Assembly: GCA_934149515.1 (NCBI GenBank)
Contig: CAKPFD010000002.1
Coordinates: 98,209-162,208 of the forward strand
Source: an uncultured Bacilli bacterium
GTDB lineage: Bacteria > Bacillota_I > Bacilli_A > RF39 > UBA660
Direction of reading: 5' to 3'
Length of the DNA stretch: 64,000 nt
In this document: in pieces, positions 22,719 through 43,234 of the stretch
Layout of the letters: each line of letters begins with the position of its first letter
Numbering within the stretch: position 1 is the first letter of the stretch
Program-made: the position numbers and the translations under genes
The notes under the pieces: model-generated
The model's input: only the letters and a program-made list of their open reading frames with translations
Databases searched by the model: none
Told to the model about the DNA's origin: nothing

Positions 22719-24584
22719 ATGAAGAATAAAAAAGAACCGAAAAAGAAACTAATAATCAGTTTTCTAGTGCTATTTTTATGTATTATCATTGGTATCAGTT
22801 ATGCTTATTTATCGATATTTTTGACATCGAATAAAGAAAATCTTGTTAAAGTAGGGGATTTAAATCTAGTGTTAGATGAAACTTCTAGTAATGGGATAAC
22901 TTTAGAAAATGATGTTGCCATCACCGATGAAGAAGGATTAGCACAAGAAGGAACAAGCTTTTCTTTAAAGAATAATGGTAAGGCTTATATTTGTTATAAG
23001 TTATATTTAGATGATAAAGATCTAACCAGTGGCGAAACAAGAGTCGATGATAAATTAATTAAATTCAGTTTAGATAAAGATAGTGCAGTAGGGAAAGCCC
23101 AAACACTACCAACGATTGGTACCAATCCAAACCGTTTGTTGGATGAAGGAACAATTGATAGTGGAGCTACAATTAATTACAAATTACGCTTATGGTTTAA
23201 TAGTGAAATAGATGCCAATTACTCTGGCCAAGTTTTTAAAGGAAAATTAAGAGTAGAAGCAACCCAGTGTGAAAAATTACCAACAGTCTCTGAACAATTA
23301 CTAGCAGGAGTAGGTACTAAAGGAGCAATAGATACCTCTGATTCAGAGCAAACTTTTATCACTGGGACAGATCCAAACAACTATATTTGGTATAGTGGAA
23401 AACTATGGAGAGCAGTATCGATTGATCCGACCGATAATAGTGTCAAACTAGTAACACAATGGAATATATCAATAATTCCATATAATAGAAATGGTAACAC
23501 AAATTTTGAAGAAAGCCATACACAACAATGGTTGAATGATACAACAGAAGATGGTTTCTTAGGAAATTTAAGAGATTATGAAAAATTCATTAAAACTAAT
23601 AGCGTTTGGAATGCCACACAAACAACTGCAACGACAAAACCTGATAAAACCACAATGGTAACAAGTACAGTAGGATTATTAAATATGTATGAATATGTAA
23701 TGAGTTATAAAAATGCTACTACATCAACAGGTTATTTAAATAATGGTCTATATTGGTGGACGTTAACACCATATAGCACAACACTTGTTCGCTACATAAA
23801 CTATTATGGTAATATAGATAATCATAGTGTTGCATATTCATATGGAGTACGTCCTTCAATTAACTTAAAATCTAGTGTAGAAATTGTATCAGGAACCGGA
23901 ACAGAAGATAACCCTTATCGCTTAAAAGGAGATAGTGATGCACCAACATCAGGAACAAAATTAGCAACAAGATATAGTGGTGAGTACATACGATTTGGCA
24001 CTGGAGAAAACAATCTATATCAAATTGTCAGTCACGAAACAGAAAAAATGACAAAAATAGCAAGTGCTATGCCATTGAAAGAAAATGGAATTACTAAACT
24101 AATGACTTTTGCAAGTTCAGGAGTTAATTATTCAAGTAGTAATACAATAGGAGCATTTTTGAATGGTGAGTATTTAACAAGTGGAAGTTATCTAACGACT
24201 GCTCAAATAAATATGATAGAAGATAATACTACCTGGTATTTGGGAACAGTTGGATTTTGTATGAGTTATAAACTAGCCAAATACACAAATACATCTAGTA
24301 CATCAGTAACATCAAATACAACGACAGCCAAAATTGGATTATTAAGAATAGGGGAATTAAATGCAGGGCAATTTATTAGATATGGAAATAATACAACACA
24401 TTGGTCATTAACACCATATAGCACAACTAACGTTAATTACATAGATAATCTTGGCGATACGAGCAATAATGTTGTTACAACTTTGTATGGTATTCGACCA
24501 ACCATGAATTTAAAGCCTAATGTCATTATCACAAGTGGTGATGGTACAAAAGATAATCCATTTGAAGTGAAATTAGCAGGATAA
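22719..24584 (+). CDS. secreted surface protein, paralog A: SipW/TasA-type signal, camelysin-like N-domain and two lectin-like 'GxRPxxNLK' modules
   Basis: RBS AGGGGTGA. Signal-anchor 'FLCIIIGISYAYLS'. N-domain motifs 'VGDLNLVLDE', 'SFSLKNNGKAY' and 'GQVFKGKLRVEATQ' parallel TasA/camelysin. Two modules end in 'YGVRPSINLK...GTGTEDNPYRLKGD' and 'YGIRPTMNLK...GDGTKDNPFEV'. Confidence 0.85.
   Translation: MKNKKEPKKKLIISFLVLFLCIIIGISYAYLSIFLTSNKENLVKVGDLNLVLDETSSNGITLENDVAITDEEGLAQEGTSFSLKNNGKAYICYKLYLDDKDLTSGETRVDDKLIKFSLDKDSAVGKAQTLPTIGTNPNRLLDEGTIDSGATINYKLRLWFNSEIDANYSGQVFKGKLRVEATQCEKLPTVSEQLLAGVGTKGAIDTSDSEQTFITGTDPNNYIWYSGKLWRAVSIDPTDNSVKLVTQWNISIIPYNRNGNTNFEESHTQQWLNDTTEDGFLGNLRDYEKFIKTNSVWNATQTTATTKPDKTTMVTSTVGLLNMYEYVMSYKNATTSTGYLNNGLYWWTLTPYSTTLVRYINYYGNIDNHSVAYSYGVRPSINLKSSVEIVSGTGTEDNPYRLKGDSDAPTSGTKLATRYSGEYIRFGTGENNLYQIVSHETEKMTKIASAMPLKENGITKLMTFASSGVNYSSSNTIGAFLNGEYLTSGSYLTTAQINMIEDNTTWYLGTVGFCMSYKLAKYTNTSSTSVTSNTTTAKIGLLRIGELNAGQFIRYGNNTTHWSLTPYSTTNVNYIDNLGDTSNNVVTTLYGIRPTMNLKPNVIITSGDGTKDNPFEVKLAG
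23331..24584 (+). repeat. dispersed repeat copy 1 (3' two-thirds of paralog A), homologous to 32435-33686
   Basis: Long stretches are nearly identical at the DNA level, e.g. 'gatacctctgattcaga(g/a)caaac' and 'tttggtatagtggaaaactatggagag'. The variable loop segment interrupts them. Confidence 0.7.
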
Positions 24585-24693
24585 TGTTTTTTCGGTGCAG
24601 ATGTTCCTGAGCAGAAAAAAACATAAAAATTTAAATTTTAACTATAATTATAAATGTTAATAGATTATAGTAAGGTATGATCAAAAAGAAAAC

Positions 24694-24785
24694 GTCCGTT
24701 ATGTGAACAACAATGGCAATGCGAATAACAACGATGTTACGAATTCGAACGGGGGTCGTTCCATTTCCCTTTAAACCTAGTTGTT
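24694..24785 (+). pseudogene. orphan, Asn-codon-rich fragment of a 'GVRPxxxLK' module (no start, broken frame)
   Basis: Translates to 'RYVNNNGNANNNDVTNSNGG' and, after a 1-nt frame slip, 'VVPFPFKPS'. It aligns codon for codon with 'RYINYYGNIDNHSVAYSYGVRPSINLKSS' of paralog A (23790-23880). It is visibly more GC-rich than its surroundings. Confidence 0.45.
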
Positions 24786-24825
24786 TACGAAAGATGTAAA
24801 TAAAATAGCTAAAAGATACATCATT

Positions 24826-24853
24826 AAAAAAAGTCAAAACGTACCTGTTTTGG
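24826..24853 (-). terminator. terminator of the 24866-25801 gene
   Basis: On the minus strand: 'CCAAAAC-AGGTAC-GTTTTGAC' followed by T7. Confidence 0.5.
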
Positions 24854-24865
24854 CTTTTCCTTTTC

Positions 24866-25801
24866 TTAAAATAATTTTTTCACTTTAGGTGGTTTGCTTC
24901 GATCGAATACATCTTGTATCATTTCTATAATAATCTTATTTGTGTCATTAAATCTATTTGGTTTTTCATCGTAAAGAGAAGAAAACATCTCTTCTGCTAG
25001 AATATCACTTTGAATAGGGTTTAAAGTTTCAATGAAACTAGCTAAATAACATTTTGCTAACATGGCTTGATTTTGATAAGTACGTTTTTCTAAATCCTGA
25101 TCCGTTATATTACTTAATAAAAGCGTTGTATAATAAATAGGGTTTTCTGCCAAAAGCATCTTTTGATCAGAATAAAATGGTTCATACTGATGATAAAACT
25201 TGCAAGAAGTATCAAATCTGGTAGCAGAAATTTTAGCACTAGTTCTTGTAATCTTTTGATTTTTCAAAATCATTTCATCCATTAATTCTGGATATAAAAA
25301 TAAAAGTTGTTGTTGAAACTCATTTGCTACTTTCATTTCTTTTGCATCTTCTAATAAACCAATTAATCTCTCAACATGATCTAAACGATACAACACTAAA
25401 TCATCTATTTCTAAACCAGGTGGTACAAAATTAGTAAATAAATAAGAAAATAAAAAATCATAATCATCTTCATTTTCCACAAAATATTGCTCATCTTCTG
25501 CTAAAATTGTTAATAATTCAATATATAAACGTTGATAAGGAAAAAGTTTTTGATGATTTTCATTCGTTAAAAGATCAAATTCAATATTATAATCTTGCTT
25601 GGTTTGAAATAGTTGCTGAAAATAATGAAAATAATCAAATGCCTGTTTTGGCGTGATGCGACTTAAAATCTTTTTTTCTTCTTCCCGTAATAGTTGAATA
25701 TGTGGAAGATGTTTCTCATAATTTTCATCATTCATCAGTGCAATATGTTCCTTAGCAATTAAATTTTGATAACGATAAAGATTAAGATTCGTTTTACTCA
25801 T
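24866..25801 (-). CDS. hypothetical protein (311 aa, predicted all-helical, no recognised motif)
   Basis: Long ORF with its own terminator and a divergent promoter region. No family recognised by eye. Confidence 0.7.
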   Translation of the reverse strand: MSKTNLNLYRYQNLIAKEHIALMNDENYEKHLPHIQLLREEEKKILSRITPKQAFDYFHYFQQLFQTKQDYNIEFDLLTNENHQKLFPYQRLYIELLTILAEDEQYFVENEDDYDFLFSYLFTNFVPPGLEIDDLVLYRLDHVERLIGLLEDAKEMKVANEFQQQLLFLYPELMDEMILKNQKITRTSAKISATRFDTSCKFYHQYEPFYSDQKMLLAENPIYYTTLLLSNITDQDLEKRTYQNQAMLAKCYLASFIETLNPIQSDILAEEMFSSLYDEKPNRFNDTNKIIIEMIQDVFDRSKPPKVKKLF

Positions 25802-31753: not shown

Positions 31754-33686
31754 ATGGAAGAACTAAAAACTAATCAAGAAAAGATAGTAATGATACTAGC
31801 AATGCTTGTTTTATTTATTGCAGTGATTGGCATCAGTTATGCAGCATTTAGTTATACAAGAACAGGGGAGAAATTAAATGCCATAACAACAGGTGTTATC
31901 AGAATGAGTTATGAAGAAAGTAGTAATGTGATATCAATTGATAAAGCCTTACCAACAACAGATGCCACAGGTAAGGTAAGATTGAAAGATGGAGAATATT
32001 TTGATTTTACATTATCTACAACCATTCAAGGATCAACTAATGTTAACTGGGAAATAGCAGCAGAAGATGTTACAACTGGTAGCAAGAAAATTGATGGTAA
32101 ATATATTAAATTATATCTAACAGAAGTAGATAGTTCAGGAACCGAAACAGAAGTAATGGCACCAGCGACTTATAGTGCTGATACTAGTGCAAATGATTAT
32201 ACTGGAAGACCAGCTAATATGATGAGTTTAGCAATGGGATCAACCTCTACAACTTTTAATAAGAAATATCGTTTAAGAATGTATGTAGATGAATCTTACA
32301 ATCCACAAGGGGATGGAGGAAACTTAGTATTTTCCGTTAAAGTAAATGCTTATGGTAAGACAGGAGAGAAAAACACTACTACATCTAGTACGGTTACAAA
32401 ACTCTTATCAGGTTTAGGAACCAATGCTGTTGTTGATACCTCTGATTCAGAACAAACCTTTGTCACGGGAACTGATCCAAATAATTACATTTGGTATAGT
32501 GGAAAACTATGGAGAGTAGTATCTGTTGATCCATCTGATAATAGTGTAAAACTAATCACGCAGTGGAATATATCAGCAATACCATATAACGAAGAGAATA
32601 ATACAGTTTTTGAAGGAAGTTATATGCAACAATGGTTAAATGATACAACAGTAGATGGTTTCTTAGGAAATTTAAGAGATTATGAAAAATTCATTAAAAC
32701 AGATAGTGTTTGGAATGCCACATTAACAACCGAAACGACAAAACCAGCAAAAACAACCATGGTAACAAGTGCTGTTGGACTCCTTAATATTTATGAATAC
32801 ATAACAACCTGTAAAAATACTACAAATGAGGTAGTATATTTAAATAATGGTCTACCTTGGTATACATTAACACCAGCGAATTCTACTGGTGTTTGGTATG
32901 TAGATGAATACGGATATGATAGCGATAGCATTAGTTCTGATCTGTCAAGAGCAGGATGGTACGGTATTCGCCCAGTAATTAATCTAAAGCCAGATGTGGA
33001 AATTATATCAGGAACAGGAACAGAAAGTGATCCATATCGTTTAAAAGGAGATGATGGTACACCAGAATCAGGAACAAAACTAGCAACAAGATATAGTGGT
33101 GAATACATTCGATTTGGAACAGGAGAAAACAATTTATATCAAATTGTTAGTCATGAAATAGAAGGAACAACAAAAATAGTCAGTACAGCCCCATTAAAAG
33201 AAGATGGAGAATATAAAATACTAGAGTTTGGCAAGAGGCCGATTTATTCAATAAATTCTTCTATTGGTAGTTTTTTAAATGGTGAATATCTAACAAGTGA
33301 AATTTATTTAACATCTTCTCAAAAAAATATGATTGAGGATAATATAACATGGTATTTAGGCGAAGTTGATATGTATCAAAATTATAAATTAGCAAAATAT
33401 ACAAGTGCATCAAGTACTAAGTTAACTTCAAATACCACCACAGCAAAAATTGGTTTATTAAGACTTGGAGAATTGATGCCTACCCAATTTTTACATATAA
33501 TGATGAAATAGAAAGTGATTGGACATTAACGCCCAGTTCATGGCTTAGCAATTATGCAAGAATATTACAAATGAGTTCTCGTGATGTAGGTGGTATTTGT
33601 CCCAGTATGTTCCTAAAATCAAATGTCATCATAACAGGTGGTGATGGTACCAAGGAAAACCCATTCGAAATAGCACTTGCAAGTTA
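31754..33686 (+). pseudogene. surface protein paralog B, interrupted by a -1 frameshift in a T5 run (33488-33492)
   Basis: RBS AAGGAG. Signal 'FIAVIGISYAAFSY'. The reading frame stops at 33509-33511. The homologous C-terminus 'FTYNDEIESDWTLTP...GGDGTKENPFEIALAS*' continues in the next frame to 33686. A T6 run would restore 'LGELMPTQFFTYNDE...'. Confidence 0.8.
32435..33686 (+). repeat. dispersed repeat copy 2 (3' two-thirds of paralog B), homologous to 23331-24584
   Basis: See copy 1. The encoded segments 'DTSDSEQTF(I/V)TGTDPNNYIWYSGKLWR' and 'SGTKLATRYSGEYIRFGTGENNLYQIVSHE' are near-identical. Confidence 0.7.
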
Positions 33687-42682: not shown

Positions 42683-43234
42683 ATGAAAAATAAGAAAAAG
42701 GAAAAAAATACGGTTTTGATAATATCTATCCTTATTGCTGTATTAGTTCTAATTGGTGTCAGTTTAGCAATATTTGCCTTTTCGAAAACAGGTAGTAAAC
42801 AAAATGTGATAACACTAGGTTCACTAAAACTAACATTAACAGAATCAGATGAAATAAACTTAGAAGACACACTACCAATGACAGACAAAGAAGGACTTGC
42901 AACAACTGGTTATGCTTTTACATTAACAAATGATGGAACCACTTCTGTTAATTATTCAATCTATTTAGATGATGTCAGTTTATCTAGCCAAGAAGTAGCA
43001 CTAGATACAAAATTTTTAAAGTATAATCTAACAATCGACAACACCATAGGAACAGCTAAATACTTAAATACCCTTGGAACAAACAGCAATCGAATAATAA
43101 CATCAGGAACTATCACCAAAGGACAAAGTATTGCTTACAACCTAAAAATTTGGGTAACAACAGAAATTGATGGTGACATTTCAGGACAAGTCTGGAAAGG
43201 AAAAATTAGATTAACAGGAACACAAGTAAGTTAG
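42683..43234 (+). CDS. short paralog C: SipW/TasA-type signal plus camelysin-like domain only
   Basis: RBS AGGTGGGA. 'LIGVSLAIFAFSKTG', 'LGSLKLTLTE', 'AFTLTNDGTTSVNYSIYLDD' and 'GQVWKGKIRLTGTQ'. Collinear with the N-domains of paralogs A and B. Confidence 0.8.
   Translation: MKNKKKEKNTVLIISILIAVLVLIGVSLAIFAFSKTGSKQNVITLGSLKLTLTESDEINLEDTLPMTDKEGLATTGYAFTLTNDGTTSVNYSIYLDDVSLSSQEVALDTKFLKYNLTIDNTIGTAKYLNTLGTNSNRIITSGTITKGQSIAYNLKIWVTTEIDGDISGQVWKGKIRLTGTQVS

Follow-up and report, generated by a model that had tools for sequence, protein, structure and literature searches.

The non-coding fragment downstream of paralog A is the template repeat (TR) of a diversity-generating retroelement (DGR) and no pseudogene scrap. 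DGRs are reverse-transcriptase (RT) systems that rewrite the binding tips of surface proteins. In the window (the whole stretch of DNA that was analysed, 64,000 nucleotides), which comes from a lineage of uncultured human-gut Bacilli (Candidatus Onthousia / CAG-451-like), it is likely that 24587-24815 represents a spare, RT-less copy of a DGR template-RNA gene whose machinery has been lost from this genome. This copy is probably an inactive orphan TR, and most likely a leftover without enzyme genes of its own. The sequence-only reading, which had proposed a degraded or fossil DGR template, was essentially right, as a DGR TR with no RT or Avd gene beside it and with signs of decay was found.

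The gene immediately upstream of the TR is paralog A, one of 16 full-length paralogs, and the non-coding element behind it (approximately 215 nt) comprises terminator, -10 box, leader, TR and 3' hairpin. The features of this region are:

22719..24584, plus strand: paralog A, an open reading frame for a secreted protein of 621 aa that has two C-type-lectin-like DUF6273 modules (Pfam DUF6273, 4.2e-12)
24587..24621, plus strand: hairpin followed by a T/A run right after the stop codon of A, the likely terminator of the target gene
24643..24648, plus strand: TATAAT box, candidate -10 element for the template RNA (GGCTATAAT, conserved in all copies and congeners)
24664..24682, plus strand: conserved leader ATTATAGTAAGG and 5' strand AGGTATGATC of a long-range closing stem, from the alignment
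24692..24752, plus strand: TR core with AAC/AAT codons at variable positions and adenine-biased differences to at least ten variable repeats (VRs)
24751..24762, plus strand: TR 3' end, GC-rich (GGGGGTCGTTCC), which corresponds to the VR end GGTGGGCGCCCC apart from 4 positions
24763..24815, plus strand: conserved 3' portion of the template RNA, including a hairpin (24783-24801), from alignment with copies and congeners
24829..24858, plus strand: terminator-like hairpin shared with a convergent 311-aa gene, outside the conserved element

The stop codon of A lies at 24582-24584 and the TR core starts at 24692, which agrees with the earlier description of a non-coding fragment downstream of A. Its alignment to the paralog loop segment, also described earlier, is far above chance in whole-genome BLAST, with more than 15 loop matches and E-values down to 1e-16. 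In the frame of the paralog loops, 24692-24762 reads VRYVNNNGNANNNDVTNSNGGRS and translates as ENVRYVNNNGNANNNDVTNSNGGRSISL*, in keeping with the Asn codons (AAC/AAT) at variable positions and the GC-rich 3' end that had been pointed out, and a hairpin-like GAACGGGGGTCGTTC is located at 24747-24761. The segment 24587..24621 is the first part of a common 3' flank that recurs behind five paralogs. The TATAAT box, which was not among the hits of a consensus promoter scan, presumably acts as the promoter of the template RNA.

The genus contains homologues of the element in at least 11 species, and an alignment of 14 such sequences contains a covarying closing stem that encloses the TR in congeners, alignment columns 111-121 pairing with 272-282 with compensatory changes (UA/CG, CG/UA). 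Homology of the window copy to the other copies and to congeners ends at 24815, before the 3' strand of this stem. That strand and all beyond it are missing, the complete RNA scaffold is absent, and the broken closing-stem pairs in the alignment come from the window copy.

Two further copies of the element, 93% and 88% identical (BLAST), are present in the 1.08 Mb genome, and one of them, on C3, is fuller than that in the window. The cognate VRs all lie outside the window, 28-104 kb from its TR or on other contigs, and the candidates amount to approximately 10-14 GC-rich loops in 7-8 genes of a 16-member, two-module DUF6273 family. Examples of cognate VRs are:

C2:61221-61289: cognate VR
C2:81413-81481: cognate VR
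C2:82061-82129: cognate VR
C5:61307-61375: cognate VR

When mismatches were tabulated by template base, an adenine bias was present for the VRs outside the window and absent for the loops of A. Pooled over ten VRs, 97/210 A sites and 65/480 non-A sites differ from the TR (P=2e-19), and the best VRs show a single non-A mismatch against 8-10 A mismatches over a 60-nt core. The window copy differs from the VRs at fewer non-A sites than the other two copies do. It could be argued that the fragment derives from an additional paralog as a piece of pseudogene and that its Asn-rich reading is a coincidence, since its alignment to the family loop and the next residues is in frame. However, only the loop is present, bordered by a conserved non-coding leader and a structured 3' RNA with no gene sequence; the element is kept in at least 11 species, with canonical cassettes and with adenines exactly at the VR-variable sites; and the adenine specificity of the VR differences already contradicts this origin, which we regard as extremely improbable. 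A relic of another paralog, the second option of the sequence-only reading, is likewise not supported, the element being a non-coding, genus-wide unit with a promoter-like box, structured flanks and canonical cassettes in congeners.

The loops of the two paralogs in the window present another picture:

23772..23855, plus strand: loop of module 1 of A, AT-rich (GC 0.32), with no adenine-specific relation to the TR
24417..24500, plus strand: loop in module 2 of A, also non-cognate (8/21 A and 21/48 non-A sites differ; GC 0.33)
31754..33511, plus strand: paralog B (585 aa), which diverges most among the full-length members of the family

For module 1 of A, an earlier hand count in which mismatches at non-A positions were about twice as numerous was reproduced (mismatches at 8/21 template-A and 21/48 non-A positions). 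C>T or G>A changes make up 16/21 of the non-A differences, and adenine enrichment relative to the TR is absent (P=0.76). Judged by its sequence, this loop appears to be a former variable-repeat position that is decayed or non-cognate. The A loops are identical in nine sequence variants of A from other assemblies, and are neither adenine-biased nor variable between the variants recovered. Similarly, the B loop (32876-32974) is not cognate to the TR and gave no hit in an A-masked scan. The claimed divergence between the A and B loops was confirmed, with a 5-residue indel, whereas their supposedly near-identical flanks (about 60 residues on each side) proved to be no more than highly similar, the proteins being 53% identical overall. 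The proposal that this loop is a diversification hot spot holds for the family, in which at least ten loops of other paralogs differ from the TR in an adenine-specific manner, but not for A and B.

An AlphaFold model of the DUF6273 module (pLDDT 74) places the module 1 loop of A in a beta-hairpin, with strands at residues 161-165 and 171-175 of the module; an earlier model from a 15-sequence alignment was dropped (pLDDT 33). The model matches phage DUF6273 proteins (prob 1.0, E ~1e-4), with weak matches to the C-terminal domain of Legionella Lcl and the lectin domains of CD23 and CD94, and a profile search against PDB sequences returned no match. The likeness of DUF6273 to the C-lectin fold is taken from PMC10743442.

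In congeners, the usual order is target-TR-111-aa ORF-Avd-like ORF-RT (approximately 317 aa; RT317), and the Avd-like gene behind the homologous TR encodes 114 aa. This canonical cassette was seen in seven genomes and at several family loci, and the intact cassette of one of them, G001, shows 0 non-A mismatches in the core for both adjacent VRs. In the present genome, no RT, Avd or accessory gene lies beside any of the three TR copies, remnants of the RT317, accessory and Avd genes were not found in this assembly, and the locus is likewise RT-less in 10/10 other assemblies. The 311-aa minus-strand ORF beside the TR was considered as a hidden RT and discarded, having neither a match in Pfam or NCBIfam nor any resemblance to RT317. 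That no RT or Avd gene occurs had been stated for the window and is correct there; it does not extend to the whole genome, since a DGR-type RT with MSL and Avd genes is found on another contig:

C4:85159-86283: the sole RT in the genome, 374 aa (RVT_1, 6.6e-20; motifs IGNMTSQ, of the form IGxxxSQ, and YMDD)

The cassette on C4 is intact, in the order target-TR-MSL-Avd-RT, with its own, different TR and remote targets on other contigs. Its MSL gene matches MutS_I (6.6e-7), and its Avd gene matches NF033474 below cut-off (4.2e-8) and is annotated as bAvd in other assemblies. Strain comparison indicates that this RT, which is accompanied by MSL and Avd, rewrites remote targets between strains. 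It might therefore also use the window TR in trans, and the orphan TR could be a working template served by the C4 MSL-Avd-RT (374 aa). One RT would then serve two unrelated TR classes, with TR-only satellites scattered behind target paralogs. The intact C4 genes, which have acted on a remote target since strain divergence, are consistent with this, as are the well-preserved TR core, the conserved -10 box upstream and the congeners G016 and G057, in which an orphan TR of the window class is also paired with an RT of 363-372 aa and RT317 is absent. Furthermore, use of TR and RT in trans has been proposed for degenerate loci (PMC10907252). However, the C4 RT is 35-47% identical to the RT317 class and has its own TR with other flanking RNA, and part of the conserved RNA scaffold is missing from the window copy. 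Moreover, a T present in all three TR copies is consistently C in the VRs, the orphan TR of G057 is damaged within the TR itself (A>T, C>T), and no mutagenesis-type VR change was seen for the window TR class among near-clonal assemblies. A working template served in trans is in our view unlikely. The sequence ACGAATTCGAACGG, common to the window and C4 TRs, is unproven as a common RT recognition site and was rejected as such, since what it encodes is (T/A)NSNG, a segment homologous between the related target domains. The specific scenario in which TR-only satellites are transcribed and copied in trans by one distant MSL-Avd-RT cassette, with two unrelated template classes, is judged quite unlikely; if true, more than 12 loops would be diversified by one enzyme set in a 1-Mb genome. 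The DUF6273 family occupies approximately 3% of the genome DNA.

The T to C discrepancy falls at core position 35 (T in 3/3 TR copies vs C in 8/9 VRs) and is the one systematic non-A difference in 38 sites of the TR core. At the GC-rich end, TR and VR are equal in intact cassettes (G001, C4), whereas the window TR differs. That 8/9 VRs agree with one another and depart from the three TR copies, both at position 35 and at the 3' end, would be expected if another TR had written the VRs. A complete RT317 cassette, with a master TR that has AAC at core position 35 and a VR-like GC-rich end, might accordingly exist in the organism and be missing from the assembly, the three TR copies being non-functional duplicates that arose as the 3' ends of targets were copied from one paralog to another. 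The genome is a MAG that is 94% complete and consists of 22 contigs, with breaks inside DUF6273 paralogs (ends of C3, C4, C6 and C9), which leaves room for an RT317 cassette that was not assembled. In public assemblies, contigs of the RT317 class are mostly fragments of 1-5 kb, and structural variants with and without an intact RT occur at other DGR loci (PMC10907252). We nevertheless consider such a missing cassette rather unlikely, as no RT317 trace was found in the assembly and the complete circular genome of G057 keeps an orphan TR with just a 90-aa RT317 remnant, elsewhere in the genome. The sole candidate RT317 contig examined for the present species belongs to another species (flanking gene 68% identical). 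RT loss is recurrent in the genus, orphan TRs without RT317 being found in both G016 and G057, and no closer TR was found in congeners of this 53-species genus.

Comparison of strains, which were found via exact-protein look-ups and give low power, showed the VRs of two genes (C2_59439 and C2_92863) to be unchanged in other assemblies or altered by gene conversion only, with no mutagenesis-type change seen. This invariance says little, because identity to the present genome is 99.5-100% for most assemblies, among which the intact C4 cassette likewise shows no change in its VR. In more distant strains the VRs are different ones, which mismatch the window TR at 5-7 non-A sites. The organism is present in ENA and Logan assemblies, this strain occurs in Hadza and other gut assemblies, and a degenerate 60-nt TR pattern had no match in JGI metagenome contigs.

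Under the preferred reading of a spare template-RNA gene that outlived its machinery, a promoter behind the target-gene terminator of the ancestral cassette would have driven a structured RNA containing the TR, followed by genes for a 111-aa accessory protein, an Avd-like protein and an RT of approximately 317 aa, which are still intact in congeners. The RT would have copied the TR with errors at adenines, and the cDNA would have taken the place of the homologous loop (VR) in both lectin-like DUF6273 modules of a large secreted-protein family. In this genome, the machinery would since have gone from all three TR copies. What remains would be three drifting TR copies, the window copy being closest to the sequence that last wrote VRs; approximately 10-14 GC-rich VRs that still bear the adenine-only signature, most of them probably no longer targeted; and loops such as those of A and B, which may have left the system and drifted to the AT-rich composition of the genome. 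The window copy itself, we infer, is no longer used. Counter-evidence to a fossil is that the TR core is hardly decayed. Given this slight decay and a GC content of 46% (vs 30% in the genome), either the loss of activity was recent or the copy is still under selection.

The finding accounts both for the orphan fragment and for the GC-rich, compositionally foreign loops in a large family of surface proteins, which a DGR wrote. The family displays all DGR life stages, from intact congener cassettes through orphan templates and clean VRs to loops decayed to genome composition. This gives the genus value as a natural series in which DGR loss might be dated and the survival of templates beyond their enzyme could be studied.

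In Bordetella phage BPP-1, the DGR has the order mtd-avd-TR-brt. The present system is similar in its adenine-specific flow from TR to VR, its GC-rich VR/TR 3' element and the structured RNA around the TR, but the window TR has no adjacent avd or brt and the gene order of the congener cassette differs. The 3'-end differences between the window TR and the VRs may be an IMH/IMH*-like feature or decay. New mechanisms are not revealed here, as RT-less DGR loci and DUF6273 targets are already in the literature. Thiohalocapsa sp. PB-PSB1 has degenerate RT-less DGR loci and targets diversified in trans (Dore et al. 2024, PMC10907252). Here too, complete loci and loci without an RT or accessory gene share one genome, VRs match a distant TR at non-adenine sites and trans use of degenerate loci is in question, but what is left here is no more than the TR RNA gene, in three copies, and the assembly holds no complete locus of the same class. 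DGRs containing MSL form architecture D, with MSL, avd and RT, and the multi-target chromosomal DGR of Treponema denticola has seven non-adjacent targets (Wu et al. 2018, PMC5758913). The C4 cassette, with its order target-TR-MSL-Avd-RT and remote targets on other contigs, is of this kind, and the congener RT317 cassettes keep the same order with a first gene of 111 aa, unlike the window TR, which has no such genes. Compared with the seven Treponema targets, candidate VRs are more numerous here (approximately 10-14 in 7-8 genes), with two VRs per protein. DUF6273 or C-type-lectin-like DGR targets are also known from gut phages, as tentaclins (PMC10743442) and in Faecalibacterium prophages (PMC11792537). 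The domain family is the same and the VR forms, in the model, a beta-hairpin at the surface, close to the C terminus of the domain, but unlike these phage-tail targets the proteins described here are chromosomal and secreted, with two tandem modules, and form a 16-member paralog family.

The fragment behind paralog A, a secreted DUF6273 protein, is a genuine template repeat (TR) of a diversity-generating retroelement (DGR), now orphaned, and it is probably inactive, a leftover. It sits in a conserved non-coding element that begins 3' of the end of paralog A (24584). The features of this region, and the intact cassette found elsewhere in the source genome (G000), are as follows.

Features of the paralog A region (window coordinates) and the intact cassette on contig C4
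22719-24584, + strand: paralog A, ORF of 621 aa, Pfam DUF6273 (4.2e-12)
24587-24621: hairpin and T/A run, the first part of the element
24643-24648: TATAAT box
24664-24682: leader, ATTATAGTAAGG with AGGTATGATC
24692-24752: Asn-codon-rich stretch (TR core), reading VRYVNNNGNANNNDVTNSNGGRS in the paralog-loop frame
24751-24762: GC-rich end GGGGGTCGTTCC
up to 24815: 53 more conserved bases, including a small hairpin
24829-24858: terminator-like hairpin, downstream of the element
24866-25801, - strand: 311-aa ORF, convergent on the TR
G000:C4:85159-87787: intact DGR cassette, target(VR)-TR-MSL-Avd-RT (locus L018; L046-L048 in other assemblies)

No Pfam or NCBIfam family matches the 311-aa ORF, whose sequence is 100% conserved across more than 20 assemblies.

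A BLAST search with the fragment through the whole genome (1.08 Mb, 30% GC, 22 contigs, of which the window covers C2:98209-162208) recovered two more copies of the entire element, at C5:48519-48741 (93%) and C3:1476-1698 (~90%), each directly 3' of another family member, together with more than 15 matches in paralog loops. There are 16 full-length paralogs in the family, 585-698 aa long; since each is built with two DUF6273 modules, each has two loops. When template adenines were ignored, the window copy showed the fewest non-A mismatches to the loops in every case, compared with the C5 and C3 copies. Pooled over ten loops, differences from the window TR fell at 97 of 210 A sites and 65 of 480 other sites (P=2e-19), and the best loops (C2:61221 and C5:61307) carry one non-A mismatch against 8-10 A mismatches in the 60-nt core. 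Such adenine-biased differences between template and variable repeat (VR) are the defining TR/VR signature of a DGR. The cognate loops are 48-65% GC in a genome of 30% GC, and the loops of A are 32-33% GC; none of the cognate loops lies inside the window, the nearest being 28 kb from the TR.

The sequence-only reading, which had proposed a degraded DGR template or a paralog relic, was essentially right about the template, whose adenine signature is genuine; the partner loops lie outside the window. It had set the fragment against module 1 of A and cautioned that mismatches there fell mostly on non-A positions. Codon by codon, 8/21 A sites and 21/48 non-A sites differ, and C>T or G>A accounts for 16 of the non-A changes, so both observation and caveat were accurate; module 2 behaves in the same way. 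Its description of paralogs A and B as near-identical around a divergent loop was overstated, since the flanks are well conserved but overall identity is only 53%.

The cognate VRs finish with GGTGGGCGCCCC (for example at G000:C2:61279-61290), which holds a perfect 8-bp palindrome, GGGCGCCC, that is lost from the TR copies. The C3 TR copy (G000:C3:1578-1650) reads GATGCTATGGATTCGTTTTGGTGTTGCCCC over its 3'-terminal third; template adenines there are substituted as in a VR, and the GC-rich end likewise resembles that of a VR, which would fit recombination between the TR and a VR or overwriting of the TR itself. Two further paralogs share the 3' flank (terminator, -10 box and leader) without a TR (G000:C2:61379-61495 and C9:41732-41814), and in the former the sequences flanking the missing TR are joined almost exactly. 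In addition, the N-terminal family domain occurs alone as short ORFs (183-223 aa), at G000:C4:84468-85139 and in about ten homologous stretches; one lies directly 3' of the RT gene and one in the window at 42683-43234 (C2:140891-141442).

DUF6273 has been described as a C-type-lectin-like DGR target in gut phages (PMC10743442). A module model built from a 146-sequence alignment (moderate confidence, pLDDT 74) places the loop in a predicted beta-hairpin that immediately precedes the conserved RP-INLK strand; its matches are to predicted phage DUF6273 proteins (prob 1.0) and, only weakly, to the Legionella Lcl C-terminal domain and the CD23/CD94 lectin domains. The best solved-structure match (model m47bc42a345b0) is an IgA peptidase domain of Thomasclavelia ramosa (PDB 9qa6, E=1.6e-4, TM 0.56), which hints that the domain also forms part of a protease directed at the host, in a related gut lineage. 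The family itself has a narrow range, occurring only in uncultured gut Bacilli (Candidatus Onthousia, Clostridium sp. CAG:451 and relatives).

The element is conserved at ~70-78% identity in many congeneric species. About 0.25 kb downstream of it there, and on its strand, come a 111-aa ORF, a 114-aa Avd-like ORF (bAvd 0.0024, DivGenRetAVD 0.005) and an RT of 305-320 aa, for example in the congeners G001, G003, G004, G005, G011, G014 and G019. In G001 the TR differs in the core from both VRs of the adjacent target at adenines only, and the GC-rich 3' ends match, apart from one C>T in VR2. The consensus RNA from 14 aligned elements has a long-range stem (5' AGGGAATTACC, 3' GGTAATTTCCT) that encloses the TR and shows compensatory changes at three positions, with more stems 3' of the TR.

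Several findings suggest that the window TR is a leftover. No remnant of the congener RT class (RT317), the 111-aa ORF or the Avd-like ORF was found anywhere in the assembly, a 94%-complete MAG with breaks inside these repeats, and the TR directly abuts the 311-aa gene in 10/10 other assemblies of the locus. The window copy matches the conserved RNA only as far as 24815; it lacks the closing stem's 3' strand and the remainder of the spacer, which the C3 copy retains and the C5 copy retains in part. Core position 35 is AAT in all three TR copies and C in 8/9 VRs, and the GC-rich end differs from that of the VRs at four positions, mostly T in the TR where the VR has C; in intact cassettes these ends are identical or near-identical. 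Among paralogs outside the window, C2_92863 has unchanged VRs in three other assemblies and C2_59439 in four sequence variants, a fifth being altered only by a gene-conversion patch from C2_80282, but the comparison assemblies are almost clonal (99.5-100% identical) and even the intact C4 VR is unchanged among them. Elsewhere in the genus, too, RTs have been lost with a TR left orphaned: G016 retains a full RNA element but no RT317; in the complete circular genome of G057 an orphan TR with visible damage remains, RT317 being reduced to a 90-aa remnant more than 500 kb away (G057:C1:649534-649779 and locus L147); and another locus holds a pseudogenised cassette. Against a leftover, the TR core is nearly intact. 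Strains 96-97% identical in the region have other VRs at the orthologous paralog, with 5-7 non-A mismatches to the window TR; such alleles may have come in from elsewhere instead of arising by new mutagenesis. Family members also recombine with one another between strains, with chimeric N-termini, loop gene conversion from C2_80282 and altered flanking genes, which implies paralog-mediated rearrangements (L040, L044 and L045 at the paralog A locus; L058 and L063 at the FtsK-adjacent paralog; protein P0007).

The whole-genome search returned a single RT, at C4:85159-86283 (RVT_1 6.6e-20; 374 aa, motifs IGNMTSQ and YMDD), and since this DGR RT exists, the window TR might, though less probably, be used by it in trans. 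The C4 locus runs target gene (VR), TR, MutS_I-like 148-aa ORF, Avd-like 139-aa ORF and RT, an order repeated in other assemblies, where bAvd is annotated, and corresponds to the MSL-containing DGR architecture of Wu et al. (PMC5758913). Between its 115-nt TR and the adjacent VR there are 17 differences, 17/17 at adenines and none elsewhere; this TR has two remote VRs, on C9 (15 A and 2 non-A mismatches) and C7 (18 A and 6 non-A). The C7 orthologue in a ~98% identical strain has a different VR (15 A, 3 non-A), so the C4 cassette rewrote a remote target after the strains diverged. However, the C4 TR is unlike the window TR in sequence, the template RNA of the C4 RT has other flanks, and this RT is just 35-47% identical to the RT317 class. 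The reading of the window TR as a leftover is probable but not certain. RT-less "degenerate" DGR loci, like the window TR, have been described for Thiohalocapsa, together with the question of their use in trans (PMC10907252).
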